A stretch of DNA of 64,000 nucleotides from an uncultured bacterium (GCA_964596115.1 CAZQRW010000003.1:5883-69882), one strand, 5' to 3'; shown: positions 7,123 to 54,565, counted from the first letter of the stretch. The notes: a model not told the origin generated them from the letters alone. Translations and numbers: made by a program.

Positions 7123-7141
7123 CTGTAAAAAGGAGGAAGGT

Positions 7142-20553: not shown

Positions 20554-21279
20554 ATGACAAAAAAGAAGAATAAAATAATAGGTGTAATACCTGTAAGATT
20601 TTTTTCCACACGCTTCCCGGGAAAGCCTCTTGCTTTAATAGCTGGTAAACCAATGATTCAGTGGGTATGGGAAGGTGTCTCTTCTTCTAATTTGATTAAT
20701 AAAATAATAGTTGCAACAGACGATGCAAGAATAAAAAAGTTTGTTGAATCTATTGGGGGGGAAGCCAGGATGACTTCCCCTTCTCACTTTTCAGGGACAG
20801 ATAGAATATGGGAGGTGGTCAAAGAAGAGGCAATAGAGATCATAATAAACATACAGGGAGATGAGCCCCTTATAACAGGTAAAATATGCGATAACGTTAT
20901 AGAAACATTATTAGCTCATCCTCAAGCTGATATGGCAACGGTTGTTAAGCGTGAAAGAAAACCAGGAAATGAAAATATTGTAAAAGTAGTTGTTAATGAG
21001 AATGGATATGCCCTCTATTTTTCCCGGTCACCAATACCTTTTTACGTGGATGGGAATCCCTCTTATTTAATTCATAAAGGTATTTATGGATTTAGAAAGA
21101 ACTTTCTTGAAAGGTTTGTAAATTCTGACCAATGTTATCTTGAAAAAGCGGAAAAACTGGAACAACTAAGGGCACTTAGCATTGGAGGAAAAATAAAGGT
21201 TGTTGAGATTGAGGAAGAACTCATCTCTGTAGATGTACCTGCAGATATTGAAAAAGTGAAAAGGACGTTAGCATCATGA
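20554..21279 (+). CDS. kdsB: 3-deoxy-manno-octulosonate cytidylyltransferase (CMP-Kdo synthetase)
   Basis: 241 aa. IGVIPVRFFSTRFPGKPL..., DDARI, IINIQGDEP. Confidence 0.9.
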   Translation: MTKKKNKIIGVIPVRFFSTRFPGKPLALIAGKPMIQWVWEGVSSSNLINKIIVATDDARIKKFVESIGGEARMTSPSHFSGTDRIWEVVKEEAIEIIINIQGDEPLITGKICDNVIETLLAHPQADMATVVKRERKPGNENIVKVVVNENGYALYFSRSPIPFYVDGNPSYLIHKGIYGFRKNFLERFVNSDQCYLEKAEKLEQLRALSIGGKIKVVEIEEELISVDVPADIEKVKRTLAS

Positions 21280-35947: not shown

Positions 35948-37582
35948 TTAAAATATAGTTTTTAATTTATCCTGTTCTCCAATAATTTCTTTTATCCTAT
36001 CTTGTTTCACTTCGATCACATCGAGAAATGCTTCTACGATATTTGGATCAAAGTGGGTGCCAGCATCTTTCTTCAATCTTCTAACTGCTTCGGTAAGTGA
36101 CAATCTTTTTCTGTAAGGCCTGTCGGTTGTCATTGCGTCAAATGCATCTGCGACAGTTATTATCTTTGAAATAATAGGGATCTTTCTTCCTTTTAAACCA
36201 GCAGGATATCCTGAACCATCGTATTTTTCATGATGGTGAAGTATTCCTTGAATAACCAGTGGTTTATTCAATGGTTCCATAATTTTTGCTCCCCTTACAG
36301 GATGTTGTTTTATGACAGCGTACTCTTTTTTCGATAATTTCCCTGGTTTTAGTAGAATACTGTCAGGTATTCCTATTTTTCCTACGTCATGTAATAATGC
36401 AGCTAATTCAAGCGCATTTCTTTCATCAGGTGAAAGTTTTAGCGTCTTAGCAATAAGTGTTGAATATGAAGTTACCCTTGCCGTATGACCTTTTGTATAG
36501 GGATCTTTTGCTTCGATAGCATTCACTATCAATCTAATTGTATTCCTAAATAGTATTTCGAGTTCTTTATAAAGGCTGGCATTTTCTATTGCAACGGATG
36601 CCTGCTTTGCTATTGCCTCGAAAAGCGTAATGTCTTCCTCGCTGAAGTGCTCGCCTCCTCTTTTGTTAAGGACTTCTGAAACACCAACAATTCTATTTTT
36701 TCTTCTTAGGGGGACAGCAATAATTGATTTTGTAATGAACTTTGTCTTTTTATCCACGCCAGAGTAGAATCGAGGATCCTTTGAAACATCAGGAACATAA
36801 AGGGTCTCACCATGTGCAGCAACCCAGCCAGCAACCCCTTTTCCCCAGGGCACTCTTATTTCTCTTAATGACTCTTTTTTTTCTCCTGTAGCCGCAATGA
36901 AATAGAGGTCTTTTTTCTCTTCATCTATTAAAAAAATAGAACTTGCCTCGGCATTGAGGGTTTCTCTTGCAATTTCCATTATCTTTTCGAGGAGTGTCTG
37001 TAAGTCGAGCATTCCACCAAATTGGAGGGATATGTCGATGAGAGCTTTAAGCTTATCTAACTCTCTTTGGTTGATATCATATAATCTCATTCGTTCTATT
37101 TCAAAACCAAATACAGGAATTACACTCTTTATAATTTCTATGTCATCTTCGTTGAACCCATCCTTTTTATTCATTAATTCAATGACCCCTACAAGCCTGC
37201 CATCGATTATAATTGGAGCAGCAACAAGATTTATTGGATGGTAGTTTTCATCCTTTATCAATTCTAACCATCTCTTATCATTTTTAATATCATTCGAGAC
37301 AACTATACTTCTTTTTTTTGCGGCAATTCCAGAGAGCCCCATACCTATTTTTATTTCTTTGCCAACAATATTCTTTGGTCCTCTATAATTAGCAAAGAAA
37401 AAGAGCTTCTGATCTCTTTTAAGAAGGAGACTTCCTTCTCCTGCACTAATACCTTCAACGATTGTTTTTAAAAAGTTTGTAGCGACATTCTTCATATCAA
37501 AAGAAGTTGTCATTCCAGAAAGGAGATTTTCAATAATCTGAGTTTTTCTTATTGTCTTATGATCCAATTCTTTTGAGCTCAT
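35948..37582 (-). CDS. GAF-GAF-HD-GYP domain c-di-GMP phosphodiesterase
   Basis: 544 aa with two GAF domains, then an HD-GYP domain (HDVGKIGIPD..., HHEKYDGSGYP). Confidence 0.85.
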   Translation of the reverse strand: MSSKELDHKTIRKTQIIENLLSGMTTSFDMKNVATNFLKTIVEGISAGEGSLLLKRDQKLFFFANYRGPKNIVGKEIKIGMGLSGIAAKKRSIVVSNDIKNDKRWLELIKDENYHPINLVAAPIIIDGRLVGVIELMNKKDGFNEDDIEIIKSVIPVFGFEIERMRLYDINQRELDKLKALIDISLQFGGMLDLQTLLEKIMEIARETLNAEASSIFLIDEEKKDLYFIAATGEKKESLREIRVPWGKGVAGWVAAHGETLYVPDVSKDPRFYSGVDKKTKFITKSIIAVPLRRKNRIVGVSEVLNKRGGEHFSEEDITLFEAIAKQASVAIENASLYKELEILFRNTIRLIVNAIEAKDPYTKGHTARVTSYSTLIAKTLKLSPDERNALELAALLHDVGKIGIPDSILLKPGKLSKKEYAVIKQHPVRGAKIMEPLNKPLVIQGILHHHEKYDGSGYPAGLKGRKIPIISKIITVADAFDAMTTDRPYRKRLSLTEAVRRLKKDAGTHFDPNIVEAFLDVIEVKQDRIKEIIGEQDKLKTIF

Positions 37583-40564: not shown

Positions 40565-41029
40565 GTGAGTATGAAAATAGAATTTATACGAAGGCTTATT
40601 AAAGTTGTAGAGGAGAGTAATATAAATGAAATTGAAATTTCCAGATTTGGAACAAGGATAAAAATAAGTAAGAATGGCAGTGTGATTGAAACCGAGGTAG
40701 CCAAATCTCCTGGAAAACAAAAGAAAACTAAGGTGCAAGAAAATATTGAAGAGGTAAGGGAAGAGGAACGAAAAGAACAGAGAAACCTTACTCCAATAAA
40801 ATCCCCTATGGTGGGGACATTTTACAGGGCACCTGCACCGAATGCACCGCCTTTTGTTGAGGTTGGTGATATGGTTAAGCCAGGTCAAACAGTATGTATA
40901 ATAGAAGCCATGAAATTGATGAATGAAATTACTGCAGATATAGCTGGTAGGGTTGTTGAGATATTGGTCAAGAATGAAGAGCCTGTAGAGTACGGTCAAG
41001 AATTATTCCTAATTGAACCTGTTTCATAA
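40565..41029 (+). CDS. accB: acetyl-CoA carboxylase biotin carboxyl carrier protein
   Basis: 154 aa with the biotinyl-lysine motif IEAMKLMNEI and a Pro/Ala-rich linker. Confidence 0.9.
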   Translation: MSMKIEFIRRLIKVVEESNINEIEISRFGTRIKISKNGSVIETEVAKSPGKQKKTKVQENIEEVREEERKEQRNLTPIKSPMVGTFYRAPAPNAPPFVEVGDMVKPGQTVCIIEAMKLMNEITADIAGRVVEILVKNEEPVEYGQELFLIEPVS

Positions 41030-41040
41030 GGAGGAATACC

Positions 41041-42126
41041 ATGGAACTAAAAAATCTCCTTGCAAAAATGATAAAGTTGGAGGCTTCAGACTTACATCTA
41101 AAGGTTGGTAGTCCTCCTGTAATGAGAATAAATGGTAGCCTTACTGCACTTAATATGGAGCCTTTGTCTAATGATGATTTAAGGAAAGCCGCTGCCTCAT
41201 TGATGACAAAGGAACAGCAGGAAAAATTTTCAAAACAGAAAGAGGCAGATTTTGCTATTGGGTTAAAGGGTCTTGCAAGATTCAGAGTAAATATATACGT
41301 TCAGAGAGGGAGTATTGCAATCGCAATGAGGATAATACCTCACCAGATAAAAACAATTGAAGAATTGAATCTCCCAGGTGTATTGAGAGATTTTTCAATG
41401 AGACCGAGGGGTCTTGTTCTCGCAACTGGTACAACAGGTTCTGGAAAATCAACAACACTTGCAGCAATGATAGAACATATTAATTTGAATGTGAATAAAC
41501 ATATTATAACAGTTGAGGATCCTATTGAATATCTTTTTAAGGATAAAAAATCTATTATTTCTCAAAGAGAGGTCGGAAGTGATACAAACTCTTTTGGCAA
41601 TTCCCTTCGCTATATTCTAAGACAAGATCCTGACGTTATAATGATCGGTGAAATCAGGGATGTTGAAACAATGGATATTGCTCTAAAGGCTGCTGATACA
41701 GGTCATCTTGTATTTTCTACGCTTCATACACTAAATGCTGCTGAGACAATAAACAGAATAATAAGTTTTTATCCACCCTATCAACAGCAACATATAAGAG
41801 TGCTTCTTTCAGCTACCCTTGTTGGCGTTATATCACTCAGACTTCTTCCAACTAAAGATGGCAAGGGAAGAATGCCTGCAACTGAGATACTTGTTGCAAC
41901 ACCCCTGATAAGGGAATACCTTCTGGATGAAGTTAAGACATTAAAAATTCCAGACGCAATTGTAGAGGGTGACCAGTATGGTATGCATTCTTTTGACCAG
42001 TCTATCATGGAGTATTATAAACGTGGTGTAATCGATTTAGAAACTGCCATTGAAAATGTAACAAATCCTGATGAATTTAAGATGAAATTAAAGGGTATAG
42101 AAACGATGCAAGCGGGGTGGGGATAG
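41041..42126 (+). CDS. pilT: type IV pilus twitching-motility ATPase PilT family
   Basis: 361 aa. Walker A GTTGSGKSTT, Asp box HIITVEDPIEY, Walker B/His box VIMIGEIRD, and a PilT N-terminal domain. Confidence 0.9.
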   Translation: MELKNLLAKMIKLEASDLHLKVGSPPVMRINGSLTALNMEPLSNDDLRKAAASLMTKEQQEKFSKQKEADFAIGLKGLARFRVNIYVQRGSIAIAMRIIPHQIKTIEELNLPGVLRDFSMRPRGLVLATGTTGSGKSTTLAAMIEHINLNVNKHIITVEDPIEYLFKDKKSIISQREVGSDTNSFGNSLRYILRQDPDVIMIGEIRDVETMDIALKAADTGHLVFSTLHTLNAAETINRIISFYPPYQQQHIRVLLSATLVGVISLRLLPTKDGKGRMPATEILVATPLIREYLLDEVKTLKIPDAIVEGDQYGMHSFDQSIMEYYKRGVIDLETAIENVTNPDEFKMKLKGIETMQAGWG

Positions 42127-43472
42127 AATTAATGATAAAGAAACTTCTTGTTGCAAATAGAGGAGAGATTGCTGTTAGAATTATAAGAGCAGCCAAAGAG
42201 CTCGGAATTGCCACTGTCGCCGTATTTTCCGAAGGCGACGAAAATGCCCTACATGTATATCTCGCAGATGAGTCCATCAGAATCGGCCCAGCTCAACCAG
42301 CCAGGAGTTATCTAAATATACCAATGATTATTGCAGCTGCAGAAGTAACAGGTGCAGATGCTATTCATCCCGGGTACGGTTTCCTTGCAGAAAACCCTGT
42401 ATTTGCTGATACTTGTATTACAAGTGGTTTTATTTTTGTTGGACCATCTCCTGCATCAATTTCAAAGATGGGAGATAAGTCAGAGGCGAAACGAACTATG
42501 AAAAATGCAGGTGTACCTGTTATTCCAGGTAGTGATGGTCCAGTATTAAAAGTAGAAAAAGCCCTTGAGATAGCTGATTCTACGGGATATCCAGTAATCA
42601 TTAAAGCTGTAAGTGGGGGAGGAGGTAGGGGTATGAGAATTGCACGAGATGCAAAGGAGTTATCTTCTTCCTTCAGAATGGCTATGTCGGAAGCAGAGGC
42701 ATCTTTCGGTGATGGAAGACTCTATATTGAAAAATATATTGAAAATCCCAGGCATATTGAGGTACAAATTTTAGGAGATAAAGATGGGAATATCATTCAT
42801 TTAGGCGAGAGAGAGTGTTCTATTCAAAGAAGACACCAAAAGCTACTGGAAGAGTCACCCTCTACGATTGTTACGCCAGAGACGAGGAAGAAAATGGGTA
42901 ACATAGCGATACAGGGAGCGAAATCTATAGGTTATTATTCAGCTGGAACTATGGAATTTATTATGGATAAAAAGAAAAAATTTTATTTTATGGAAATGAA
43001 TACAAGGATTCAAGTTGAACACCCTGTTACTGAACTGGTTACAGGAATCGATATTGTGAAGGAGCAAATTAAGATTGCGATGGGAGAGAAGATTACTTAT
43101 AGACAGAAAGACGTAAAATTTAATGGTCATTCAATAGAGGTTAGGATTAACGCAGAAAACCCTTCGTCTGGTTTTGTACCTAGCGTTGGTAAAATAGAAA
43201 ATCTGCATATTCCAGGTGGACCTGGAATCAGGGTGGATACCCATATTTATCAGGGATATCAAATCCCTTCATTTTATGACTCTCTTTTAATGAAATTAGT
43301 TTCGTATGGTATTGATAGAAATGAATCAATCAATCGAATGAGAAGGGCTTTAAATGAGATTATAATTGAAGGTGTTGATACTACTATACCACTTCACAAA
43401 AAGATAATTGATAGTGAGGGTTTTCAAAAAGGAGAAATAGATACTGAATATATCAAGAAATTGGGATATTAA
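42117..43472 (+). CDS. accC: acetyl-CoA carboxylase biotin carboxylase subunit
   Basis: 451 aa ATP-grasp protein (KKLLVANRGEIAVRIIRAAKELGI...), with biotin carboxylase C-terminal motifs. Confidence 0.95.
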   Translation: MGIELMIKKLLVANRGEIAVRIIRAAKELGIATVAVFSEGDENALHVYLADESIRIGPAQPARSYLNIPMIIAAAEVTGADAIHPGYGFLAENPVFADTCITSGFIFVGPSPASISKMGDKSEAKRTMKNAGVPVIPGSDGPVLKVEKALEIADSTGYPVIIKAVSGGGGRGMRIARDAKELSSSFRMAMSEAEASFGDGRLYIEKYIENPRHIEVQILGDKDGNIIHLGERECSIQRRHQKLLEESPSTIVTPETRKKMGNIAIQGAKSIGYYSAGTMEFIMDKKKKFYFMEMNTRIQVEHPVTELVTGIDIVKEQIKIAMGEKITYRQKDVKFNGHSIEVRINAENPSSGFVPSVGKIENLHIPGGPGIRVDTHIYQGYQIPSFYDSLLMKLVSYGIDRNESINRMRRALNEIIIEGVDTTIPLHKKIIDSEGFQKGEIDTEYIKKLGY

Positions 43473-43473
43473 G

Positions 43474-44076
43474 ATTATTGGGATTACTGATAGGAAATAT
43501 CTTGGAGAAAACATAGAGAAAGGTGTAGAACTCGCCCTTAAGGGTGGAATAAAAGCTATCCAATACAGGGAGAAAGAGATGGATGATAGATATAAATACA
43601 AAAAGGCTTTGGTGTTAAGAGAATTATGTGATAATTATGGTGCTATCTTAATTGTAAATGACAGGCCTGATATAGCAATTCTCTCCCATTCACATGGTGT
43701 TCATCTTGGGCAGAGTGATTTACCTGTTGATAAAGTGAGAGGAATATTCCAGGGTTTAATTGGGGTTAGTGTTGGGAATAAAAAAGAAGCGGAAGAGGCT
43801 GAGGTAAAGGGTGCAGATTATTTAGGGTTAGGAGCGTTTTATCATAGTAATACAAAACAAGATATAGCAGAGGTAGAGGATAAGGTTGTTAAAGAAATAA
43901 AAAAAAGTGTGAAAATCCCTGTCATTGCCATTGGGGGCATCAATATTAGTAATGTTAGAGCTGTAATGAAGAAGGGTGTGGATGGGATTGCTCTTAGTGA
44001 AGGATTATTTACAGGAGATATTTTTGTAAATGCCTCAAGATTGGTTGATTTGGTAAATAAATATGTCTCTCATTAA
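43474..44076 (+). CDS. thiE: thiamine-phosphate synthase (start codon uncertain)
   Basis: ThiE motifs ALKGGIKAIQYREKE, LIVNDRPDIA, HLGQSDLP, IAIGGIN. The conserved N-terminal ~35 aa lie upstream of the first ATG (43579) with no canonical start in frame. Initiation is probably at ATT (43474/43477), abutting the accC stop. Confidence 0.7.
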   Translation: MIGITDRKYLGENIEKGVELALKGGIKAIQYREKEMDDRYKYKKALVLRELCDNYGAILIVNDRPDIAILSHSHGVHLGQSDLPVDKVRGIFQGLIGVSVGNKKEAEEAEVKGADYLGLGAFYHSNTKQDIAEVEDKVVKEIKKSVKIPVIAIGGINISNVRAVMKKGVDGIALSEGLFTGDIFVNASRLVDLVNKYVSH

Positions 44077-44659
44077 GTACGCGTCAAAAGAAATTACATG
44101 TAAAATTGTATACTACGGGCCGGGTAGAGCTGGTAAGACTACAAATTTAAAATTTCTATTTACGAAGATTCCTGTGGATAAAAAAAGCGACCTCGTATCC
44201 CTTGCAACTGAATCAGATAGAACACTATTTTTTGATTTTTTACCCATAGAACTTGGTAATTTTCGTGGTTTCAGAACGAGATTTCAGCTTTATACAGTTC
44301 CTGGCCAGGTATATTACGATTCGACAAGAAGACTTGTACTTCAGGGTGCAGATGGCATTGTTTTCGTTGCCGATTCTTCAGATTCAAGATTTGAGGATAA
44401 TATCGTTAGTATGGAAAATATGATTGAAAATATGGAAAAAAACGGATTGTCAGTGGATGAAGTCCCGATTGTTATACAATACAATAAAAGAGATTTACCC
44501 GATGTAGTTTCGGTATCACAACTTGAAAAGTCATTGAATCCAAACGGATTTAAGTATTTTGAGTCAATAGCAATTAAAGGTGAAGGCGTAGCATCCACAT
44601 TCAAAGAAATTGGGATGCAGGTTTTAAAATCAATAAAAATGAAATTGGGGCTTGAATGA
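44063..44659 (+). CDS. mglA: MglA-type Ras-like small GTPase (gliding/polarity regulator)
   Basis: 198 aa, near-colinear with Myxococcus MglA. P-loop KIVYYGPGRAGKTTN, switch TESDRTLFFDFLP, YTVPGQVYYDS, and NKRDL for guanine specificity. Confidence 0.85.
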   Translation: MSLIKYASKEITCKIVYYGPGRAGKTTNLKFLFTKIPVDKKSDLVSLATESDRTLFFDFLPIELGNFRGFRTRFQLYTVPGQVYYDSTRRLVLQGADGIVFVADSSDSRFEDNIVSMENMIENMEKNGLSVDEVPIVIQYNKRDLPDVVSVSQLEKSLNPNGFKYFESIAIKGEGVASTFKEIGMQVLKSIKMKLGLE

Positions 44660-46371
44660 TCATTTCGAATTTTAATAAGGAAGCAGCAAAGGCAATTCAG
44701 TTTGCCTGTGAAAGAAAAAGTGAATATAATCCTATATACATATATGGCCAAAGGGGTAGTGGTAAGACTGAGATAATTAAAGAGATATTCAATAAATTTA
44801 AAGGCAAAAAAATGATTTTGACTCCTTCGGAATTCTGTGAAAAAAGCATTGAGGATATTAATAGAAATGATCTGCTTATTATTGAGGATATTGGTTTAAT
44901 AAGACCCAATAAAGAGAACGAAAAAAAACTTATTTCCTTGATGAATAAATTTTTTGAAGAAGGTAGACAGATCGTATTAACGGGTGTATATGAGCCTGAT
45001 AAGCTTCCTTTTAATGAAGAGATCGTGAACAAAATAAAAAGGGGTATAACCCTGAAGATATACCCACTTGATGACGAAGATAAAAAATTATTATTTAGAA
45101 ATTATGCCCCAGATTTAGATGAAGGTATGCAGCAGAACATTCTTAAAAGCGAGGTTTCAACTGTCAAGGAATTTTTTGGATATCTCAATAATATCAGGAC
45201 TTATAAGAAGAAAGAAGGGGAGAAACCACTTACGCAATCCAATGTATTTAAGGAATTTATAAAAGAGATTGAAAATGATATGCCAGAAACCCTCAAGAAG
45301 GGTTCAGTAGAGGAAGAGCTGAGGGAAGAGTATAGAGCCAAATTGTATGTTTGGAAAATGAAGGGTTTTCGATGTGATAGAGTTGAATCAGTAATTGATG
45401 GTAATATTGAGGATATAACCAGGGAGTTTGTAACATTTACAACAAATGTGCAGAGGTTGATTGAGTTACAGAGAAGGTATGGAAGTATTGATCAATCTAT
45501 TATTCCGAAAGAAGAAAAAAGCCAGATAGAGGAGCGTCTTTTTAACCCTGAAGACATTCCCGAACTGGAAGAGACAATAGCACGATATGAATTGCTTTCA
45601 GAAATAAGAAGGAATGTTGCCAAATATATTAATTGGGATAAATCTTTTGATGATTATGTGGTTAGTGAACCCAATAAAGAGGCATACGATTTTGTAATTG
45701 ACATCATAGATAATCCACGACAGAAGGGGGTATACTTAATTGAGGGTTGTATGGGCTGTGGAAAAACAGAGATTGTAAACCTTCTTGCACAGGGGCTTTT
45801 CAAAATGTATCCTGATGTTACCTTTTTGTTTTACAAATTTGAATATTTGATTTCAAGAGATTATCCGGAGTATATTAGCGAAAACATTGATGTGATACTT
45901 ATAGATGATGTTGATATGTTTATAAATAAATCTGGGTGGGAGAAATTTGAATCTATTATCAATAGATGTAGTAATAGGTTGTGTATCTTTACTCTTACAA
46001 AGTATCCCAGAGCTGAAAAATTTAATGAATATGTTGATAACTCACGTATAGTTAAGATCCGCAAACCAGATAGACGCATTCTAAAAAAAATGTTAGAGGA
46101 CGTTGAAAATATCAAAGGAATTGATTTAACGCTCGAGACAGAAAAAGACATATTGGATAAAGCAAAAGGTGGATTTTATGACCTTGAGGCACTGGTATCT
46201 TTACAACTAAGTAAGGGGTTGAGTAGGGAAGAGACGACGGATTTAAGAGAAAAATCTATAAAAAACAGACCCGAAGCAATAGATAAACTCAAAAGGAGGG
46301 GGCATGAATTGATAGATGGCATAGCGCAGGAGTTTCAGGACGATGATTTCAGATTGGGTAAGGAGATATAA
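44656..46371 (+). CDS. protein with two tandem DnaA/Hda-like AAA+ modules
   Basis: 571 aa. Module 1: YNPIYIYGQRGSGKTEI (Walker A), LLIIEDIG (Walker B), GRQIVLTGVYEPDKLPF..IKRGITLKIYPLDDEDK (sensor/box VII-like region as in DnaA domain III/Hda). Module 2: GVYLIEGCMGCGKTEI, VILIDDVDMF, NRLCIFTLTKYP...IVKIRKPDRR. Neither module has a DnaA domain I or IV. Confidence 0.6.
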   Translation: MIISNFNKEAAKAIQFACERKSEYNPIYIYGQRGSGKTEIIKEIFNKFKGKKMILTPSEFCEKSIEDINRNDLLIIEDIGLIRPNKENEKKLISLMNKFFEEGRQIVLTGVYEPDKLPFNEEIVNKIKRGITLKIYPLDDEDKKLLFRNYAPDLDEGMQQNILKSEVSTVKEFFGYLNNIRTYKKKEGEKPLTQSNVFKEFIKEIENDMPETLKKGSVEEELREEYRAKLYVWKMKGFRCDRVESVIDGNIEDITREFVTFTTNVQRLIELQRRYGSIDQSIIPKEEKSQIEERLFNPEDIPELEETIARYELLSEIRRNVAKYINWDKSFDDYVVSEPNKEAYDFVIDIIDNPRQKGVYLIEGCMGCGKTEIVNLLAQGLFKMYPDVTFLFYKFEYLISRDYPEYISENIDVILIDDVDMFINKSGWEKFESIINRCSNRLCIFTLTKYPRAEKFNEYVDNSRIVKIRKPDRRILKKMLEDVENIKGIDLTLETEKDILDKAKGGFYDLEALVSLQLSKGLSREETTDLREKSIKNRPEAIDKLKRRGHELIDGIAQEFQDDDFRLGKEI

Positions 46372-47969
46372 TGGCAATAAAAGGATCACTTAGAGAAGCA
46401 TCCTTACCTGATGTGGTACAGATGCTGGCTTTAGGAAGAAAAACTGGTATTCTGAGTGTTACCAATGGTGAAATGCTTGCACATATTTACTTTGAAGAAG
46501 GCAAATTAACAGGGGCTGATATTGTCAATAGGGAAAATAAAGTAGGGGAGCTGCTGGTAAAGGCTGGTAAGATAACCCCTGAACAGCTTGACAGTGCACT
46601 GGAGAAACAAAAAAGTAGACGAGGTGTACCCATTGGGGAGATATTATATGAAATGGGGTTAATTGATGAGAAGACTCTTCAGGACGCATTAATAGGACAG
46701 ATGAAAGAGACACTTTTTAATTTATTTTCCTGGAAAGACGGTCTTTTTAATTTCGAACCAGGCGAAAGTAAGGTTAAGAAAATAATTTCTATCAGCATAA
46801 AGGCAGAAGACTTACTTCTTGAAGCAGCAAGGCTCGCAGACGAGATTGGTGTTGTGGACCTACCTCCAGCAGATAGTATTCTTCAGAAGATGGGCGGTGT
46901 AAATATTGAAGAACTCGATGAATTTGAAAGACAAGTATTTGAAGTCATTGATAATAAAAAAACAATGGAAGAAATCCTTTCCTCTATAAGTATGGATGAA
47001 TTTGAGACGATGAAAGCAATTGGAAGATTAAAAAAGAAAGGTGTTATTACATCACGCAAGTTTACCAATATTGCGCCTGAGAAGGCGGCTTCAAAAATTG
47101 CTGAACATGAGAATCTTGGATTGGCGTTTCTACAGATGCATATGTATGAAGAAGCTGAGAGAGAATTCAAGAGGATTTTAGATTTTCGTCCCGATGATTA
47201 CAGGGCAATGTTTTATCTTTCAATTATAAGGTATAAATTAGAAGATTACAAGGAAGCGGCAAGTCTTATAGAAAAAATTAAAGATAGTCAATTTGAACAT
47301 CCATATATTTACTCTAACCTTGCAGTTTATTATGAAAAACTTAACGATTTAAACAAGGCATTAACTTTAGTTGATCACGGGCTTCAGAGATGGAATTCAA
47401 ATTTAGAACTTTTGTTAAATAGAGGTATAATTTTGATGAAAATGGGTCGATACGATGATGCTATCAATGCATTTAACAATCTTTTGAAGGTTAATAATGA
47501 AAATACATATGCATATTTTTTTATAGCTCTAATAAATATACTCCAAAATAAGATTGAGCATGCATTAAATTTTTTACTTGATGGATTACGCTACAAACCA
47601 AAGTTTCCTGAGTACTATAATAATATTGCCCGTGTATACGAAGAAACTGCTGAGTTTGAAAAAGCAGAGGAGATGTATAAAAGGGGACTCGAAATAGATC
47701 CTGCGTATCAACTTATCCGACTTAATCTTGCTAATTTCTATTATAAAAATGGTTACTATTCATTAGCAGAGGAAGAATATCTTAAGCTTATTTCATCTGA
47801 TTATAAAAATGGGGATATATTTGCGAAACTTGGGAATATTTATTTTAAAAAGGGAAACAAAAAAGAGGCACTGCTTTATTGGGAAGAATCGCTTAAATTC
47901 AATCCAGATGATTTGACTGTATTAAAGAATATAAAAATTGTAAAACAGGATTATGGATTGGGCATTTGA
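46371..47969 (+). CDS. PATAN (DUF4388) domain protein with C-terminal TPR repeats
   Basis: 532 aa. The N-terminus GSLREASLPDVVQMLALGRKTGILSVTNGEMLAHIYFEEGKLTGADI has an alpha-helical insert (GELLVKAGKITPEQLDSALEKQ...GEILYEMGLIDEKTLQDAL) typical of PATAN. Then at least 6 TPR-like repeats. Confidence 0.65.
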   Translation: MAIKGSLREASLPDVVQMLALGRKTGILSVTNGEMLAHIYFEEGKLTGADIVNRENKVGELLVKAGKITPEQLDSALEKQKSRRGVPIGEILYEMGLIDEKTLQDALIGQMKETLFNLFSWKDGLFNFEPGESKVKKIISISIKAEDLLLEAARLADEIGVVDLPPADSILQKMGGVNIEELDEFERQVFEVIDNKKTMEEILSSISMDEFETMKAIGRLKKKGVITSRKFTNIAPEKAASKIAEHENLGLAFLQMHMYEEAEREFKRILDFRPDDYRAMFYLSIIRYKLEDYKEAASLIEKIKDSQFEHPYIYSNLAVYYEKLNDLNKALTLVDHGLQRWNSNLELLLNRGIILMKMGRYDDAINAFNNLLKVNNENTYAYFFIALINILQNKIEHALNFLLDGLRYKPKFPEYYNNIARVYEETAEFEKAEEMYKRGLEIDPAYQLIRLNLANFYYKNGYYSLAEEEYLKLISSDYKNGDIFAKLGNIYFKKGNKKEALLYWEESLKFNPDDLTVLKNIKIVKQDYGLGI

Positions 47970-48720
47970 GTATCTGAAAAGAACTATTAAAGAAATATTG
48001 AATTTTGAACCGGAGAATTATAAGGTTAGGCCATTTATAAGGAGGATAAGGTCAAGGATGAGAAGTGTAGGTATAATGGAATATTCTAAATATGCTGATT
48101 TCTTAAAAAATCATCCAGAGGAAGTAATTAAACTCAAAGAGACATTGACCATTAATGTTTCGAAATTTTTCAGGAATCCATCTGTATTTTCCATTATAGA
48201 GAATGAGATTTTTAAAAGACTTTCTTCTCCTATCACAATATGGAGTGCCGGTTGCGCAACAGGTGAGGAACCTTATACTCTTTCAATGATCTTGTTAGAA
48301 TCTGGAAAGACAGGTAAGATCATAGCTACAGATGTTGATGCATCAGCAATAAAAAAAGCACAGGATGGTGTATATGAAAAGACATCCCTCTCGGAAATGT
48401 CTCCCTATATCATTTCTCGGCATTTTAGTAAAGAAAATGGTAAGTATAGAGTAAATGATAATGTCAAAAAACTTGTTGAATTTAGAATTCTTGATCTGAA
48501 GGAGCTTGAAGAATTTAAAATGATTTTTGATGTCATTGTCTGCAGAAATGTATTAATATATCTTTCAAAGGAGTTCCAAGGGGAGCTCATTAAGGGTTTT
48601 GCTAATCATTTAAAGGAGAGAGGATTTCTTATTCTCGGTATGGTGGAGGGAATGTTCGGTATTGGCGAGGATTTCTTCGTTCCATATAATTTAAGGGAGA
48701 GAATCTACGTAAAAAAATGA
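47953..48720 (+). CDS. cheR: chemotaxis protein methyltransferase CheR
   Basis: 255 aa with an N-terminal helical domain and a SAM-binding domain (IWSAGCATGEEPYTLSMIL, VIATDVD). Confidence 0.9.
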   Translation: MDWAFEYLKRTIKEILNFEPENYKVRPFIRRIRSRMRSVGIMEYSKYADFLKNHPEEVIKLKETLTINVSKFFRNPSVFSIIENEIFKRLSSPITIWSAGCATGEEPYTLSMILLESGKTGKIIATDVDASAIKKAQDGVYEKTSLSEMSPYIISRHFSKENGKYRVNDNVKKLVEFRILDLKELEEFKMIFDVIVCRNVLIYLSKEFQGELIKGFANHLKERGFLILGMVEGMFGIGEDFFVPYNLRERIYVKK

Positions 48721-49193
48721 AAAAGTTATTTGTAAAGGTAGGAGATATGAAGGCTGCCAAAGATTCATCCCTGTTAATTACACTTGGGCTTGGCTCATGC
48801 GTTGCAGTAACAATTTATGAACCAGAAAAAAAGATTGGGGCGTTACTCCATTTTCTTTTGCCAGAGGGAGATAGAAACGGAAGTTCACCATTTAAATACG
48901 GAGATAAAGGCATAGAAATGATGGTTAAAGCTTTGGAAAATTTAGGTGCACAGAGGAACAAAATGGTCGCTAAACTATTCGGGGGGGCATTAATGTTTGC
49001 CCAATTGATAAGAACACCGGAGAATTCTATAGGGGTGAGAAATTTAAAGAAGGCAAGGGAAGTTCTTAATAGATTAAATATACCAATTGTTGGCGAGGAT
49101 ACAAACGGTGATTACGGAAGAAGTATTGAGTTTAACCTGAAAGACGGATCAGTTCGTGTTTCCTCGTATAAAGCTGGGGTTAAAGTTATATGA
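48717..49193 (+). CDS. cheD: chemoreceptor glutamine deamidase CheD
   Basis: 158 aa with the conserved GLGSCVAV and catalytic Cys/His region. Confidence 0.85.
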   Translation: MKKLFVKVGDMKAAKDSSLLITLGLGSCVAVTIYEPEKKIGALLHFLLPEGDRNGSSPFKYGDKGIEMMVKALENLGAQRNKMVAKLFGGALMFAQLIRTPENSIGVRNLKKAREVLNRLNIPIVGEDTNGDYGRSIEFNLKDGSVRVSSYKAGVKVI

Positions 49194-50209
49194 TAAGGGT
49201 GCTCGTAGTAGACGATTCGCTATTTATAAGAAGTCTATTAACAGACATACTTGAATCGGAAAAAGATATTGATGTAATCGATACAGCTAAGGATGGGATT
49301 GAGGCAATTTCAAAGACCCTAAACTTTAGGCCAGATGTTATAACAATGGATGTAGAAATGCCTCGTTTAAATGGTATTAAGACCGTTGAAAAAATAATGA
49401 AGGAAAGACCCACGCCAATTATTATGATAAGTGCATACACCAAGAGAAATGCGGAGATAACCCTGGAAGCACTTTCAAAAGGTGCTATTGATTTTATAAC
49501 CAAACCTGGTGGACCTGTAAGTTCGGATATAGGGAAATTGAAGAACGATATAATTACAAAGGTTAAAATAGCCTATAGGGCAAATATTACTTCATTAAAT
49601 ATAAAACCTACCAGGGATGTAGTACCTGGTTCAGAGAAAAGAACATTTAAAATTGTAGTAATTGCTTCTTCCACTGGTGGCCCAAAGGCACTCTCTCACA
49701 TAATCCCAAGATTACCAAAAGATTTTGCAGGTTCCATTCTCGTTATTCAGCATATGCCAATGGGCTTTACAGGACCACTTGCTGAAAGGCTTGACAGGGT
49801 TTCAAATGTTAAGGTTCTTGAGGGGAAAAATGGAACAAATGTCAGACCTGGAACAGTGTACATTGCTCCCGCAGGTTTTCATATGAAGGTTGATTCGAAA
49901 TTAACTATCTTTTTGACAAAGGATCCTCCTCTGCATGGAGTAAGACCATCTGCAGATGTAACTATGATGGATGTTGCCAGACTTATGCAAAAGAATTCAA
50001 TTGGCGTAATTCTGACAGGAATGGGTAGAGATGGTAGTATGGGTGTTAAGCAGATTAAAAAAATGGGTGGTAAAGTAATCGTTCAGGATAAAGAGACTTC
50101 TACTGTTTATGGAATGCCGAAATCTGCACTTTCCACTATTACTCCTGATATCATTTCCCCTCTTGATAATATTGCAGAGGAAGTGATCAGGTTTATTGAA
50201 AATGATTGA
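49190..50209 (+). CDS. cheB: chemotaxis response-regulator protein-glutamate methylesterase CheB
   Basis: 339 aa. REC domain (VLVVDDS..., DVITMDVEMP) plus a C-terminal methylesterase (SSTGGP, HMPMGFTG). Confidence 0.9.
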   Translation: MIRVLVVDDSLFIRSLLTDILESEKDIDVIDTAKDGIEAISKTLNFRPDVITMDVEMPRLNGIKTVEKIMKERPTPIIMISAYTKRNAEITLEALSKGAIDFITKPGGPVSSDIGKLKNDIITKVKIAYRANITSLNIKPTRDVVPGSEKRTFKIVVIASSTGGPKALSHIIPRLPKDFAGSILVIQHMPMGFTGPLAERLDRVSNVKVLEGKNGTNVRPGTVYIAPAGFHMKVDSKLTIFLTKDPPLHGVRPSADVTMMDVARLMQKNSIGVILTGMGRDGSMGVKQIKKMGGKVIVQDKETSTVYGMPKSALSTITPDIISPLDNIAEEVIRFIEND

Positions 50210-50966
50210 AGAAATAGAAAACAGGATAAAAGAAATTGAAGATAAAATAAGAAAAAAGAAGGATTTTACTATTGAACTTAAATTACTTAAAAAAGAATTT
50301 TTAAAATACAAGGCTTATATATTTTCTGTCGAAAATAGAATACAGGATATCGAGGCAAAACTAGCCCCTGCCAGGATGATGGGAAAGTTGAGGTCTGCTG
50401 ATGTTGATATTCAAACTCTTCTGGATAGTGCCTGGAATAATATAGTAAATGGTAATTATAAGGAAGCCGTTAAAGTGTTAAAAAAAGCACGAGCCCTTTC
50501 TCCAAATAATGAAAAAGTTCATTTATATCTGGGTTGGGCATTTACTTTACTTGGGAAGTATAATGAGGCAATGGCTGCCTATCAAAATGTGCTAAAAAAA
50601 GATCCCTTTAATCAACTTGCTTTGACAAATATAGGATTTATTAATTACAAATTAGGAATATATGGAGAGGCAATCGAAAGATTATCAAAAATAATAAAGG
50701 AAAATAAAGATAGACTGGCTGTATTGTATGCAAATTTTTATCTTGGCATAATATATTATGAAAGAGAAATGTATTTTGATGCCATTGAATTTTTTAATAA
50801 GGCAATAAAGGCTGGACCAAATCTTTTTGAAGCATACTATTATCTTGGAAAGGCATATATGAAGTCAGGAAATAAGAAATTAGGTGATGAGGTCTGGGAT
50901 AAGTTGCTGTCTTTAAAGACAACGAATATATGGTCTCAGAAGATCGAGGAGGAAAGAAATGGTTGA
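50196..50966 (+). CDS. TPR-repeat protein
   Basis: 256 aa with an N-terminal coiled coil, then TPR repeats (AWNNIVNGNYKEAVKVLKKARALSPNN...). Confidence 0.7.
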   Translation: MKMIEEIENRIKEIEDKIRKKKDFTIELKLLKKEFLKYKAYIFSVENRIQDIEAKLAPARMMGKLRSADVDIQTLLDSAWNNIVNGNYKEAVKVLKKARALSPNNEKVHLYLGWAFTLLGKYNEAMAAYQNVLKKDPFNQLALTNIGFINYKLGIYGEAIERLSKIIKENKDRLAVLYANFYLGIIYYEREMYFDAIEFFNKAIKAGPNLFEAYYYLGKAYMKSGNKKLGDEVWDKLLSLKTTNIWSQKIEEERNG

Positions 50967-51771
50967 AGAATATTGGGGTTTTAAGCTTAAGCCCTTTCTG
51001 AATACGCCTGATACTCAATTTTTATTCAGAAGCGAGTGTTTTAATGAAGGGTATGCCAGAATTTTATACAATATTAAAGAAATCAGGGGAGGACTGACAT
51101 TGATTACCGGAGAAATTGGCAGTGGTAAAACATACCTTGCCTATGCTTTGAAAGAAGATCTTGGCAAAGAAGGGGAACCAGTGGTTCTTCTAACAAACCC
51201 CACTTTTTCTCCTACTGGCTTTTTGAAAACTATAATTGAACAATTTGGCATTGGAGAAAACGAAAAGATCTCGAGATACAGGGTGAAACTTTTAAAGAAG
51301 ATAGAGAATATTCTTAATGAAATCAAGAGAGAGGGTAAAAATGCAGTTATTATGATTGATGAAGCCCAGGTGTTGAGGAAAGCCTTATTAGAGGAGATAA
51401 GATTACTGCTTAACTTTGAAGATAAAGATGGTAAACTTTTGCAAATCGTAATGCTAGGGCAGCCCGAAATGGCAAAAAAAATCAAAAAAATGCCTCAGGT
51501 TAAACAAAGAATAAATGTTAGGTACCATATTGGACCTCTCAGTAAGGAGGAAACTATAGAATATATTTCTCATAGATTAAATGTTGCAGGTGGTGAGATA
51601 AATATATTTAAAAAAGAAGCAATTGATAGAATATTTAAATATTCTAAAGGAATACCCAGGGTTATAAACAATATTGCACAAAATGCATTATTTGTTGGTA
51701 TGAGTATGGAGGCTAAAAATATAAATGGAGAAATAATAGATGCAGTAGCAGTAGATTTGAGGATATTATAG
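50959..51771 (+). CDS. ExeA/GspA/MshM-family AAA+ ATPase
   Basis: 270 aa. PFLNTPDTQFLFRSECFNEGYARILYNIKE, Walker A GEIGSGKT, Walker B VIMIDEAQ, and LGQPEM...RYHIGPL...Y, as in ExeA-type secretion/pilus assembly ATPases. Confidence 0.75.
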   Translation: MVEEYWGFKLKPFLNTPDTQFLFRSECFNEGYARILYNIKEIRGGLTLITGEIGSGKTYLAYALKEDLGKEGEPVVLLTNPTFSPTGFLKTIIEQFGIGENEKISRYRVKLLKKIENILNEIKREGKNAVIMIDEAQVLRKALLEEIRLLLNFEDKDGKLLQIVMLGQPEMAKKIKKMPQVKQRINVRYHIGPLSKEETIEYISHRLNVAGGEINIFKKEAIDRIFKYSKGIPRVINNIAQNALFVGMSMEAKNINGEIIDAVAVDLRIL

Positions 51772-51772
51772 A

Positions 51773-52465
51773 ATGAAAAAGAGAAAAAAGATTTCCTTCC
51801 AAAAAATGCTTGAATTAAAGGAAAAATCAGAAAAGAAGATAAATAAATCAATAAAGAGTAAAACGGTTAAGGCAGAGGCTGCAAATATCAAGGAAGAACC
51901 AAAGCAACCAGCAAAGCTATCAGTACAGAAACAGCACAAAAAAATAGAAAAGGAGCAGAAAATAGTTGAGGATACAGGTTTACCGTTATTAGAACCAAAT
52001 CAGATAGATAAAGGTAAAGCCATTGTGTTAGATGAAATTTTGGTAGTAAAGATAAAAAACGAATTTTATGGACTTCCGGTTGAGTATGTCACTGAAATAT
52101 CAGAGCTTAAGGCCGTCCCAACACCTGATATGCCTGATTTCATCGCAGGTATAGTTGAAGTAAGAGAGAAGGTTATTCCAGTTATTGATCTTGCGGCAAG
52201 ATTTGGTCTTGGGAAAATAGAAGGTAAAGTTTTACCTGTAGTTATAATTAATGTAGGAGATGAATCAATCGGTTTTCAAATCGAGAAGATCATTGAAATA
52301 GAAAAAATGAAAGACAGGGTAATAATGGCTTTACCAGATAACTTTAAGGAGAGATATCTTTTAGGAGCAATTGAATATAAAGGCAGGGTTTTAGCGATTA
52401 TTGACCCCGGTTCCCTTCTAAGAGAAAGTGAATATAAGGGATTAAAGAAGATTAGAAATGAATAG
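51773..52465 (+). CDS. cheW: CheW-like coupling protein with Lys-rich N-terminal extension
   Basis: The C-terminal ~140 aa form a CheW domain ([44 protein letters not shown]). The N-terminal ~70 aa are K/E-rich and low-complexity. Confidence 0.8.
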
Positions 52466-54140
52466 CATATCAAAAAAATATGCACTTTATACAGTTTTAC
52501 CAGGAATTGTAGGCACTATTCCTGTTGAGATTGTGGGTATAAGGTTTTATGCAGGTTTACCAGCAGAAAGACTACTTCCCCTATGCCTTTTAGTTTTTAT
52601 CATTGCATCATCCTTATCCGTTATTTATTATTTTTTTCACTATTACAGGATGGAAAGGATTATTTCGGAAGATAATGCGAATGGATTGTTCCAGAGTCCA
52701 ATCATTTCTGGAATTCATACATTGATAAATTTTGCTATTTTGGCCCCAATAATTTTTGTTATATATAATCACTTTAATGAACTTATTAGCAATACACAAA
52801 TTGGTAAGGTGTTTTTGGTCAATATTTTTGCAGGTTTGATTGTATCGGGGATTGTATACCCCCTTGGGGAATTGATAATAATGCCATATCTATACAAATA
52901 TGAACGAAAATTTAAAGGGATATCTTTATTTGTAAAATTATGCATTGTTCTATTAATTGGGTTAATCTTTTCGTGGTTTACTGGTGTACTATTTATCCGA
53001 TATAATCCATCGATATTTCTAATTTTATTGCCCATTTTTCTGACGCTTCTAACAATATTCAGAGTTCTTAAACCAATGAGGCTTTTTAATGAAGGCTTAG
53101 ACCAATTTATCTCTGATAAACCCAATCTAAGGTTGAAGATGAAAGTAAAGACAGGCGATGAATTCGAAGATCTGTCTGAGAAGGTAAATAAGTTTGTAGA
53201 AATAGTATCAGAGATTGTTAGTAGAATTAAAGAAATCTCAGAAAAAATGATGAAATCTTCAGAATCAATTTCTACCTTATGTAAGAAATTAGCATCTTCT
53301 ATCAAGGAAATTATCAGCAGTATTAATAAACTCAACAATGAAAATATTAATTCTCACCAATATGTAAAGCATGTTAACGTAGAAGCTAGAAACGTCACTT
53401 CAATGGCAGAGAATATTGAATCTCAAATGAAAATGCTAACAAAAGTTACACAGGATTCAGATAAAAGAGCAGTTGAAGGAGAAAAAAAGGCAGAAGAGGT
53501 TCTTTCGAGGATAAAAGAGAATATCAACTCTATAAAGTCAACAGAGGAGAGAATGAAGGACCTTATTGCAACTGTTCAAGAGGTTAACAGTTTTGCAGAT
53601 ATTTTATCAGAAGTGACAGAGGATACAGATCTCCTTTCATTGAATGCTTCAGTAGAAGCTGCCCGTGCTGGGGAATACGGTAAAGGATTTGCAATAATTG
53701 CAGAAGAAATAAGAGGGCTCTCTAACCAATCAAAGGAATATCTTGATAGAGTTGTTTCAGTCTTAGATAGAGTAACCACTGCTTTTGAAAACTTCAGGAA
53801 TACACTTTCAGAAGGTATTAGCAAGATTTCAGGAAGTGTGGAATCAATGGATAATATTAAGGGTGCATTAAGTGAGATATCAGAAAATGTTACACTTGGT
53901 ACCAATATGACAAATCAGGTATCTGATACTATCAAAGAGGAAATAAATAGTATATCAAAGTTGTATAGTGTAATAAGCAATGTTTCTGAGACCTTTGGGG
54001 CAACTACTTCTGCTATAGAGGGAATTTCTTCTTCTTTAGAAGAACAAATGGCATCGATGGAGGAACTTAAAGGTATGACGGAAAACATGCTAAAAGTTTC
54101 CCAAGAGATGAAATTATCTATTGAGAGGTTCGAGGTTTGA
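52458..54140 (+). CDS. methyl-accepting chemotaxis protein
   Basis: 560 aa with multiple N-terminal TM helices, a HAMP-like region, and a C-terminal MCP signalling domain with the highly conserved [30 protein letters not shown]. Confidence 0.85.
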
Positions 54141-54565
54141 AATATTTGATTTTTAATTTAGGTGAGAATACATTTGGAATTTCCATAGATAAAGTTAAAG
54201 AGCTTGTAAAATTTAAAAGGTTGCGTAGGTTGTCGCAAATGCCTAAGTGGCTTTCGGGAATAGTTTCTTATAGAAAAGAGAATTATGGATATGTAAGATT
54301 GTGGGAGATTCTTAAGACCCCCTCCCCTGAAAAGGAAATAATTCTTTTTTTAACAGGGGTTGATCTGGTAAGCTTTGGTATTGGTAATTTGGCAGGGATC
54401 AAAGACATTTCAGTAAAGGGGGTATCACACTCTTTTTTAAGGCTAAAGTATATAGAAGGGATTGGTAATTTAAATGGTAATATTGTATTAATTATTTCTC
54501 CTGTAAATCTTATTGGATCAAGGAAAATAAATACGATTAAACAGTTACTTAAGGGGAGAAAATGA
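54137..54565 (+). CDS. cheW: CheW-like coupling protein
   Basis: 142 aa single CheW domain ([20 protein letters not shown]...). Confidence 0.75.

Follow-up and report, generated by a model that had tools for sequence, protein, structure and literature searches.

A PATAN domain with a predicted c-di-GMP-binding insert in a tetratricopeptide repeat protein from a conserved MglA–chemosensory gene cluster

The PATAN domain (DUF4388 in Pfam) and its helical "alpha-clip" insertion were defined in 2006 (as cited in 10.1101/2021.06.11.447907), in a paper that, according to later citations (10.1101/2021.06.11.447907, PMC4316618), also pointed to PATAN genes located near mglB and to secretion and pilus ATPases whose N-termini carry similar helical repeats. 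What the domain does biochemically has been unclear ever since. Its cyanobacterial versions are known to contact the pilus motor, as the PATAN domains of PatA-type regulators bind PilB1 and PilC (10.1101/2021.06.11.447907), and PATAN genes tend to adjoin mglA or mglB, the proximity of mglA having been reported in 2015 (PMC4316618). Han et al. remarked, moreover, that alpha-clip repeats are also found in the N-termini of PilB and GspE, and that some DUF4388 proteins are annotated as GspE_N (10.1101/2021.06.11.447907). The present work concerns a gene on the + strand of a 64,000-nucleotide stretch of DNA from an uncultured bacterium (GCA_964596115.1, CAZQRW010000003.1:5883-69882; hereafter "the window", with coordinates counted from its first letter). 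Its product joins a PATAN domain to an array of tetratricopeptide repeats (TPRs), and the helical insert of this PATAN domain carries the sequence signature of a receptor of cyclic di-GMP (c-di-GMP) of the MshEN_N type.

MshEN domains were recognised as c-di-GMP receptors in 2016 and are characterised by the consensus RLGxx(L/V/I)(L/V/I)xxG(L/V/I)(L/V/I)xxxxLxxxLxxQ, which occurs twice with a 5-residue linker and contacts the ligand through Gly backbone amides, Leu triads, and the terminal Gln (PMC5013675). The first position of this consensus has since been widened to (R/K/L), and in PilF the GSPII-B repeat, with K167/L196, binds c-di-GMP with a dissociation constant (KD) of 6 nM, and GSPII-C, with P335, binds it with a KD of about 460 nM (PMC11731258). 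The gene of the window and the parts of its product, with the evidence for each, are the following (aa, amino acid residues; ORF, open reading frame; AF2, AlphaFold2).

46371..47969, + strand: PATAN(MshEN insert)-winged-helix-like-8xTPR gene; ORF, 532 aa, ATG start
46371..46529, + strand: N-terminal half of the PATAN core, aa 1-53 (strand, helix, three strands); PF14332, AF2
46530..46706, + strand: four-helix insert, predicted c-di-GMP-binding module of MshEN_N type, aa 54-112; NF053729.1, PDB phmmer, Foldseek
46539..46610, + strand: motif I, aa 57-80, KVGELLVKAGKITPEQLDSALEKQ; motif scan
46629..46700, + strand: motif II, aa 87-110, PIGEILYEMGLIDEKTLQDALIGQ; motif scan
46707..46850, + strand: C-terminal half of the PATAN core, aa 113-160 (strand 125-130, helix 145-160); PF14332, AF2
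46863..47066, + strand: small winged-helix-like domain between PATAN and the TPRs, aa 165-232; AF2, family conservation
47076..47954, + strand: eight TPR repeats and capping helix, aa 236-528; Pfam TPR families, AF2, Foldseek

The insert is related to MshEN modules in both sequence and predicted structure. The NCBIfam model NF053729.1 ("cyclic di-GMP-binding domain, MshE-related") matches aa 58-107 with 54.5 bits when the full protein is searched and with 57.1 bits when aa 1-238 are used, against a cutoff of 38. With aa 1-235 as the phmmer query against the PDB, aa 54-110 align with each of the three GSPII repeats of Thermus PilF (6f8l, E 1e-12), and the insert also aligns to Geobacter PilB (5tsg), Myxococcus PilB (3jc8), and V. 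cholerae MshE (5htl). In the AF2 model of the N-terminal part (mean predicted local distance difference test score, pLDDT, 83.5), four helices (aa 57-64, 70-82, 88-94, and 100-119) are interposed between PATAN strand 4 (45-51) and strand 5 (125-130), and the comparison of this model with the PDB by Foldseek returns the MshE/c-di-GMP structure 5htl_A (probability 0.99, root-mean-square deviation 2.3 Å, 58 columns, 33% identity) as the sole match with a probability >0.6, no match reaching E <= 0.001. When scored against the pattern (R/K/L)hGxxhhxxGhhxxxxLxxxLxxQ, the insert contains two motifs of 24 residues each in tandem. Motif II fits the relaxed pattern of Wang 2016 exactly and motif I fits it except for K67 at position 11, while no other ORF of the 64-kb window carries the pattern.

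Both motifs are maintained throughout the family. Among 121 homologues, G59, L73, G89, and Q110 are present in all, Q80 in 118, L62 in 116, and L103 in 114, and the first position is R or K in 121/121 sequences for motif I and in 109/121 for motif II. The mean frequency of the top residue is 0.78 at motif positions versus 0.49 elsewhere in the insert, and none of the six clades has lost the motif; constraint, thus, acts on the motif and not on the whole insert. By contrast, in a paralogous protein of Gemmatimonadota, here called PATAN2, the motif is often degenerate, with 0/36 sequences keeping both copies by regular expression, so that the fold alone, which these paralogues share, does not enforce the motif; regular expressions undercount it in distant relatives (the window's own motif II failed the first pattern), for which the NCBIfam hidden Markov model was used instead.

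By analogy with MshE and PilF, it appears reasonably probable that the protein binds c-di-GMP. The insert would accommodate one molecule through its two tandem motifs, as in MshEN_N, with Q80/Q110, the Leu triads, and the backbone amides that follow G59 and G89 predicted to make the contacts. Several observations weigh against such a c-di-GMP-sensing role. The Arg that heads each motif in the original consensus is replaced by K57 and P87, K67 stands at position 11 of motif I, where the consensus is hydrophobic, and the spacer between the motifs (KSRRGV) comprises 6 residues instead of the published 5. However, Lys and Pro at position 1 occur in the proven binders PilF GSPII-B and GSPII-C (PMC11731258) and, therefore, K57 and P87 do not argue against binding. 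The spacer varies from 5 to 7 residues across the family, and PilF GSPII-C likewise has >5 residues between its two motifs as aligned in the PDB search. Furthermore, the literature holds no biochemical data on the binding of c-di-GMP by any PATAN protein, and no paper was found that states or tests a c-di-GMP motif in the PATAN insert, the closest being the remarks of Han et al. and a single architecture, "MshEN-HD-GYP-REC-DUF4388", in the supplementary table of Wang 2016. Finally, no diguanylate cyclase was seen in the 64-kb window, which encodes the following predicted enzyme of c-di-GMP turnover.

35948..37582, - strand: GAF-GAF-HD-GYP protein of c-di-GMP phosphodiesterase type, 543 aa; PF13487 HD_5 (E 2e-43), GAF domains

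This protein, encoded about 9 kb from the PATAN-TPR gene, has intact HD398, HHE450, and GYP458 motifs, and its presence is evidence that the organism uses c-di-GMP.

The insert was first read as a protein-protein "alpha-clip", and its conservation could partly reflect such a role. In its strict form, this alternative holds that the insert is a structural or protein-interaction element that binds no nucleotide, the whole protein being a ligand-independent scaffold. The history of the domain is in keeping with it, since Makarova 2006, as cited in 10.1101/2021.06.11.447907, noted the same helical insertion in the N-terminal parts of secretion and pilus ATPases at a time when c-di-GMP binding had not yet been discovered. 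Moreover, some MshEN homologues, such as XpsE (PMC5013675) and PilF GSPII-A (PMC11731258), do not bind the nucleotide, and three residues of the window protein deviate from the consensus (K57, K67, and P87), two of them matching those found at position 1 of proven binders. Nevertheless, the non-binders lost Gly, Leu, or Gln (PMC5013675), precisely the residues that are invariant or nearly so in the 121 sequences; no structural need readily explains the invariance of Q80 and Q110, both polar surface residues, and paralogues of the same fold let the motif decay. We consider a purely structural or protein-binding insert rather unlikely.

The assignment of the surrounding PATAN domain is clear, as PF14332 matches aa 4-158 (profile positions 1-120 of 122) with E 1.2e-33 and 116.2 bits, the Pfam cutoff being 25. 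The original prediction, made from the DNA sequence alone, had proposed a PATAN domain with its helical insert over the first ~130 aa; the domain and its insert, placed by AF2, are borne out, but the length is about 158 aa. The N-terminal half of the core consists of strands at aa 3-6, 26-31, 36-42, and 45-51 and a helix at 12-21, and in the C-terminal half W121, G124, F126, and F128 are invariant in the family. The winged-helix-like unit that follows comprises strands at 169-173 and 226-230 and helices at 184-192, 199-205, and 210-222, and its sequence matches to helix-turn-helix regulators are weak (E 0.02-0.45). About a dozen Pfam TPR families (TPR_1/2/8/11/16/19 and others) score above cutoff between aa ~245 and 520, and the full-length AF2 model (pLDDT 87.7), with seventeen helices, has 8 helical hairpins at 236-510 and a cap helix at 515-528, which makes eight repeats where at least six had been foreseen. 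Foldseek places an 8-repeat consensus TPR (8chy, E 2e-16) at the top of the matches to this model, with the OGT TPR domain also among the top ones; generic TPR superhelices alone were retrieved, and no specific TPR relative such as an MglA-bound one. Pfam gives no Response_reg (receiver, REC) match in the protein, whose C-terminal part is the TPR array.

Other PATAN proteins appear to share the motif. When aa 1-162 were compared with 1.84 billion representative proteins, 11,965 clusters (at 50% identity) were retrieved with E <= 1e-3, and 71/71 tested relatives of other architectures, from the nearest clade of PATAN domains, match both PF14332 and the NCBIfam c-di-GMP motif, in a sample biased by the presence of the insert in the query. 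These relatives include multi-PATAN proteins and PATAN domains fused to REC, protein kinase, DnaJ, CarboxypepD_reg, and DnaA-type ATPase domains; the motif is, thus, not peculiar to the PATAN-TPR family. Three of the proteins found (P0122-P0124, about 1,450-1,490 aa) contain five tandem PATAN domains, and in P0122 four stretches of the c-di-GMP motif were scored with 195 bits, which suggests multi-site receptors. If the insert proves to be a working c-di-GMP site, PATAN proteins would become a large, as yet unrecognised class of c-di-GMP receptors (about 12,000 clusters).

The PATAN-TPR ORF is a real, conserved gene with >1000 full-length homologues (520-545 aa, 30-50% identity, 99% coverage), of which the named ones belong to WOR-3, TA06, or Gemmatimonadota/Longimicrobiaceae and are annotated just as "DUF4388 domain-containing" or "tetratricopeptide repeat protein". 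Residues M1, I3, G5, and L7 are invariant in the homologues and, therefore, the ATG start is correctly placed. Both the architecture PATAN(MshEN)-wH-TPR8 (wH, winged-helix-like domain) and the gene cluster around it appear to have been undescribed so far. The junction with the gene upstream, which encodes an AAA+ protein, is the following.

46360..46373, + strand: Shine-Dalgarno sequence AAGGAG (46360-46365) and TAATG stop/start overlap with the AAA+ gene; direct sequence reading

The TAA stop of the AAA+ gene (46369-46371) and the ATG of the PATAN-TPR gene (46371-46373) overlap by 1 nt, while the ATG of cheR at 47953 lies inside the PATAN-TPR gene (stop 47967-47969), an overlap of 17 nt. These overlaps agree with the translational coupling between the AAA+ gene and cheR that had been proposed. 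The neighbouring genes with which the protein would operate are listed below.

41041..42126, + strand: gene for a PilT-type pilus retraction ATPase, between accB and accC; PF00437 T2SSE, E 5e-47
44063..44659, + strand: mglA, 198 aa; E 3e-68 to T. thermophilus/M. xanthus MglA (3t12, 5ymx)
44656..46371, + strand: protein with two DnaA/Hda-like AAA+ modules, 571 aa; PF00308, E 1e-21, and PDB DnaA 2z4r, E 1e-11
47953..50209, + strand: cheR-cheD-cheB, which overlap or directly adjoin each other and the PATAN-TPR gene; Pfam CheR, CheD, CheB_methylest, Response_reg
50196..54565, + strand: TPR protein, AAA_22/ExeA-like ATPase, CheW, methyl-accepting chemotaxis protein (MCP), CheW; Pfam, NCBIfam

On the + strand of the window the order is accB, pilT, accC, thiE, mglA, AAA+, PATAN-TPR, cheR, cheD, cheB, TPR protein, AAA_22/ExeA-like ATPase, cheW, MCP, cheW, and cinA, followed by other housekeeping genes. 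Inspection of the P-loop and switch residues indicates that the window MglA keeps the equivalents of G21, R53, and Q82. The AAA+ protein has a second P-loop at aa 340-460 and intact Walker A and B motifs in both modules, and it lacks DnaA domain IV. Despite the presence of cheR, cheD, cheB, cheW, MCP, and a further cheW, no cheA or cheY was found with Pfam in the 64-kb window.

The conservation of this neighbourhood was followed in 83 related loci, 80 of them from species-representative genomes, which were annotated with the window proteins as queries; at least 593 relatives were confirmed among the 600 candidate stretches listed, and the denominators given here are informative loci. The gene order mglA-AAA+-PATAN/TPR-cheR-cheD-cheB-TPR is found again in WOR-3, TA06, Cloacimonadota, Stahlbacteria, and Gemmatimonadota. 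In 57/66 loci from four or five phyla, mglA lies on the same strand and <=3.5 kb upstream of the PATAN-TPR gene, the AAA+ gene lies directly upstream in 55/66, and MglB is encoded <=4.5 kb away in 54/66, while cheR is the next gene in 62/73 loci, cheB follows in 66/73, and a second TPR protein (TPR2) is found downstream in most. The DnaA-like AAA+ gene and cheR-cheD-cheB are the steadiest companions of the PATAN-TPR gene. This survey across phyla upholds the genetic coupling to mglA put forward initially, and the persistence of the linkage means that a functional tie of the protein to the MglA pathway is well supported. In Gemmatimonadota the module forms part of a complete chemosensory operon, which in locus L014 runs cheY-cheA-cheC/X, 900-aa TPR protein, PATAN2, TPR+Roadblock, Roadblock, mglB, mglA, AAA+, PATAN-TPR, cheR, cheD, cheB, cheW-cheW, TPR, and in a TA06 locus (L002) the cluster is placed after pilMNOPQ and pilT. 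Furthermore, a protein of 1026 aa (P0255) is an in-frame fusion AAA+::PATAN-wH-TPR whose junction lacks the usual Met-Ala start; by the Rosetta-stone argument, the AAA+ and PATAN-TPR proteins would, therefore, work together. A second candidate fusion, P0176, was discounted, as its low-complexity linker points to a gene call in the wrong frame.

It is, thus, likely that the PATAN-TPR protein belongs functionally to a module of MglA, Che, and pilus proteins. Two exceptions count on the other side. One Gemmatimonadota contig, sampled twice (L003 and L021), has a full-length orthologue but none of the cluster genes, and a WOR-3 subclade (L012, L015, L028, L047, and L075) has the arrangement mglB-AAA+-PATAN/TPR-cheRDB with no mglA in the flanks (none by tblastn at E < 1), so that the tie to MglA is not obligatory. 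The orphan mglB of this subclade mirrors the orphan mglA of the window. Upstream of mglB, locus L014 (5436-8207) and other Gemmatimonadota carry PATAN2 (about 380 aa), a TPR+Roadblock fusion, and a further stand-alone Roadblock protein.

The arrangement of mglA and mglB bears directly on a second suggestion of the original prediction, namely that the protein might substitute for MglB, the GTPase-activating protein (GAP) of MglA, where mglB is absent. In the window mglB is indeed absent: an MglB profile built from related loci and searched in six frames of the 64 kb gave a best E of 0.35, and Pfam identified no Roadblock/MglB among 20 small ORFs. As a family trait, however, the absence does not hold. 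The small ORFs near mglA in related loci are genuine MglB proteins (that of L014 matches PF03259, and that of L023 matches M. xanthus MglB 6h5b with E 5e-12), and they are found beside mglA-AAA+-PATAN/TPR in the order mglB-mglA in all Gemmatimonadota and in the order mglA-mglB in group A of WOR-3/Stahlbacteria. Group B of WOR-3 shows mglB-AAA+-PATAN/TPR, mglA being missing from the flanks, while the window's clade, TA06-like WOR-3, and Cloacimonadota have mglA-AAA+-PATAN/TPR with no mglB at the locus. The missing mglB is, thus, a lineage-specific loss from the operon, and since mglA and mglB are each missing from the locus in different clades, either gene is just as likely to have moved to another part of the genome as to have been lost.

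What speaks for a replacement of MglB by the PATAN-TPR protein in the window's lineage is that MglA seems to need a GAP there. The MglA proteins of mglB-less loci keep G21, R53, and Q82, whereas in Bdellovibrio, which has no MglB, the MglA protein carries S21 and is believed to be locked in the GTP form (PMC3983030); judging from these residues, they are probably still hydrolysis-competent and some GAP is probably still needed. Nevertheless, orthologues of the PATAN-TPR protein adjoin a bona fide mglB in the majority of loci, covering all Gemmatimonadota and part of WOR-3/Stahlbacteria and, therefore, its conserved role cannot be the replacement of MglB. No change in the protein tracks the loss of mglB, except Arg -> Lys/Leu/Pro in the nucleotide motif, and the WOR-3 subclade that retains mglB beside the gene has no mglA nearby. 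Pfam finds no PF03259 Roadblock/LC7 match in the protein, although the L014 MglB used as a positive control was matched. The PATAN core as a Roadblock- or longin-like GTPase-regulatory fold was also considered and rejected at the sequence level, as hhalign against a 62-sequence MglB profile gives probabilities of 0.6% and 0.3% (with and without insert), and the Foldseek matches of the N-terminal model to GATOR1 and SEAC chains are weak (probability <=0.54, TM-score <0.3). In addition, mglB may reside elsewhere in the genome, as mglA does in the WOR-3 subclade with mglB alone. A GAP function of the protein in place of MglB is, thus, very improbable, a negative but useful answer.

Two other proposals concern the partner of the TPR superhelix. 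The first is that the PATAN-TPR protein is a direct effector of MglA-GTP, which its TPRs would bind as those of SgmX and Bd2492 do, recruiting downstream machinery. MglA-binding TPR proteins exist, namely the C-terminal TPRs of SgmX (PMC11580455) and Bd2492 (PMC3983030); SgmX co-occurs phylogenetically with the PATAN proteins MXAN_3211 and MXAN_4965 (PMC11580455), and the proximity of MglA/MglB genes to PATAN genes had been noted earlier (PMC4316618), in keeping with the position of mglA two genes upstream in most of the loci compared here. However, the likeness of the TPRs is generic, the best structural matches being consensus TPR and OGT, the gene occurs with mglB and no nearby mglA in the WOR-3 subclade and on its own on one Gemmatimonadota contig, and the adjoining and fused gene is that for the AAA+ protein and not mglA. 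An MglA-effector role is, on the analogy with SgmX and Bd2492, a tentative proposal, compatible with the explanation favoured below as a branch of it.

The second proposal is that the protein mainly controls chemoreceptor methylation in response to c-di-GMP, and that its TPRs would act on CheR (and CheD/CheB) in a manner resembling MapZ-CheR1 and the CheR-fused TPR of FrzF. The FrzF protein of Myxococcus combines CheR with TPRs. Adaptor-mediated control of CheR by c-di-GMP has a precedent in MapZ (PMC6370697), and ComFB domains, which bind c-di-NMP, are fused both to PATAN and to CheR (PMC12448109). The 17-nt overlap with cheR and the frequent presence of cheR and cheB downstream are consistent with such a role, although cheR is not the next gene in 11/73 loci in which the PATAN-TPR protein and TPR2 persist. 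Moreover, neither the TPR of FrzF nor the PilZ protein MapZ shows any specific similarity to it, and the window has neither cheA nor cheY. A protein devoted mainly to CheR, as suggested by analogy with these systems, seems improbable, and somewhat more so than an MglA effector.

The explanation that we favour, with a confidence slightly better than even, is that the PATAN-TPR protein is a c-di-GMP-sensing adaptor and that it regulates type IV pili jointly with MglA, the DnaA-like AAA+ protein, and the adaptation enzymes of the Che set. It would be a cytoplasmic adaptor of four parts, i.e., PATAN, the inserted MshEN_N-type module, the winged-helix-like domain, and the eight-repeat TPR superhelix. 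Since the module is spliced inside the PATAN fold, ligand binding may alter how the PATAN and TPR surfaces engage their partners. Among these, the AAA+ ATPase has the strongest genetic evidence, and further candidates are MglA-GTP, on the model of SgmX and Bd2492, and/or CheR, on the model of MapZ-CheR1 (PMC6370697); MglB, where present, and CheD/CheB also count among the genetically fixed partners. On the basis of this fixed set of AAA+, MglA(/MglB), and CheR/CheD/CheB, we propose that the protein couples the c-di-GMP level to the MglA/chemosensory module that would set type IV pilus activity or polarity. A pilus output is proposed because pilT is part of the cluster, pilMNOPQ is adjacent in TA06, and cyanobacterial PATAN domains bind PilB1/PilC. 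The broader, joint proposition that PATAN inserts are generally c-di-GMP sensors, and that this protein and the DnaA-like AAA+ protein form a node joining c-di-GMP, MglA/MglB, and CheR/CheD/CheB to steer type IV pili, is a good deal more doubtful.

If the c-di-GMP site works, the cluster would give a concrete wiring of second messenger, Ras-like polarity GTPase, and chemosensory adaptation. In Myxococcus and Bdellovibrio, the cross-talk of these three systems in surface motility is known through dispersed genes only. Should the joint proposition be true, Gemmatimonadota, WOR-3, Cloacimonadota, and relatives would possess one conserved "supermodule" without a characterised counterpart. The cluster is present in the culturable Gemmatimonas and is, thus, experimentally reachable.

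Some further features of the window can be mentioned. The pilT gene splits accB and accC (40565-43472, + strand), which are normally adjacent, and this arrangement is kept in WOR-3 and Cloacimonadota relatives (L001, L004, and L006-L008). Downstream of cheB (50196-51771, + strand), the gene for a 256-aa coiled-coil/TPR protein overlaps that for an AAA_22 ATPase akin to ExeA and to the PEP-CTERM-associated ATPase, which scores 216 bits against TIGR03015, under the cutoff of 324.5. This pair presumably resembles the TPR protein and ExeA-like ATPase that occur together in MSHA pilus operons. Elsewhere, a DDE transposase (14311-15684, - strand; PF13701, E 3e-44) marks a mobile element, and two predicted proteases are encoded on the + strand, an 854-aa M14 carboxypeptidase with an InhA-like MAM domain (7112-9676) and a 1047-aa C25 (gingipain-family) peptidase (21276-24419).

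Compared with described systems, the protein is closest in its insert to the MshEN/GSPII domains of MshE (5HTL) and PilF (GSPII-B/-C), with which it shares the tandem 24-residue motifs, the four-helix bundle, the Gly/Leu/Gln contact positions, and the use of Lys and Pro at motif position 1. It differs from them in that the MshEN_N subdomain stands alone, inserted into another domain instead of N-terminal to a T2SSE ATPase, with a spacer of 6 residues and with binding that is predicted. The PatA-type regulators PixG, PixE, and PilG likewise have PATAN with the alpha-clip, lie in chemosensory clusters, and control type IV pili; however, the window protein has no receiver, its C-terminal part being the winged-helix-like domain and eight TPRs, and its family occupies a fixed mglA-AAA+-X-cheRDB cluster in WOR-3, Cloacimonadota, and Gemmatimonadota, whereas the PatA-type regulators are found in cyanobacterial tax operons. 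SgmX of M. xanthus and Bd2492 of B. bacteriovorus, MglA effectors that promote type IV pilus formation, resemble the protein in their TPRs and in their ties to MglA and type IV pili, SgmX also in its co-occurrence with PATAN proteins; beyond the TPR fold there is no specific homology, MglA binding by the window protein is putative, and SgmX has 14 TPRs and neither a PATAN nor an MshEN module, whereas the window protein has eight and both modules. With MapZ of P. aeruginosa, the adaptor of CheR1 and the precedent for the coupling to cheR (PMC6370697), it would have in common the role of a c-di-GMP-binding adaptor acting on CheR, but MapZ is a single PilZ domain with no relation in sequence or fold. 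MglB, the Roadblock/LC7 GAP, belongs to the same operon in most related lineages, but it is unrelated in sequence (hhalign <1%) and co-exists with the PATAN-TPR protein, the two showing no alternation. Every component is, thus, known already, and what is new is the combination of a PATAN domain bearing an MshEN-type insert with a TPR array in a conserved MglA–chemosensory cluster.

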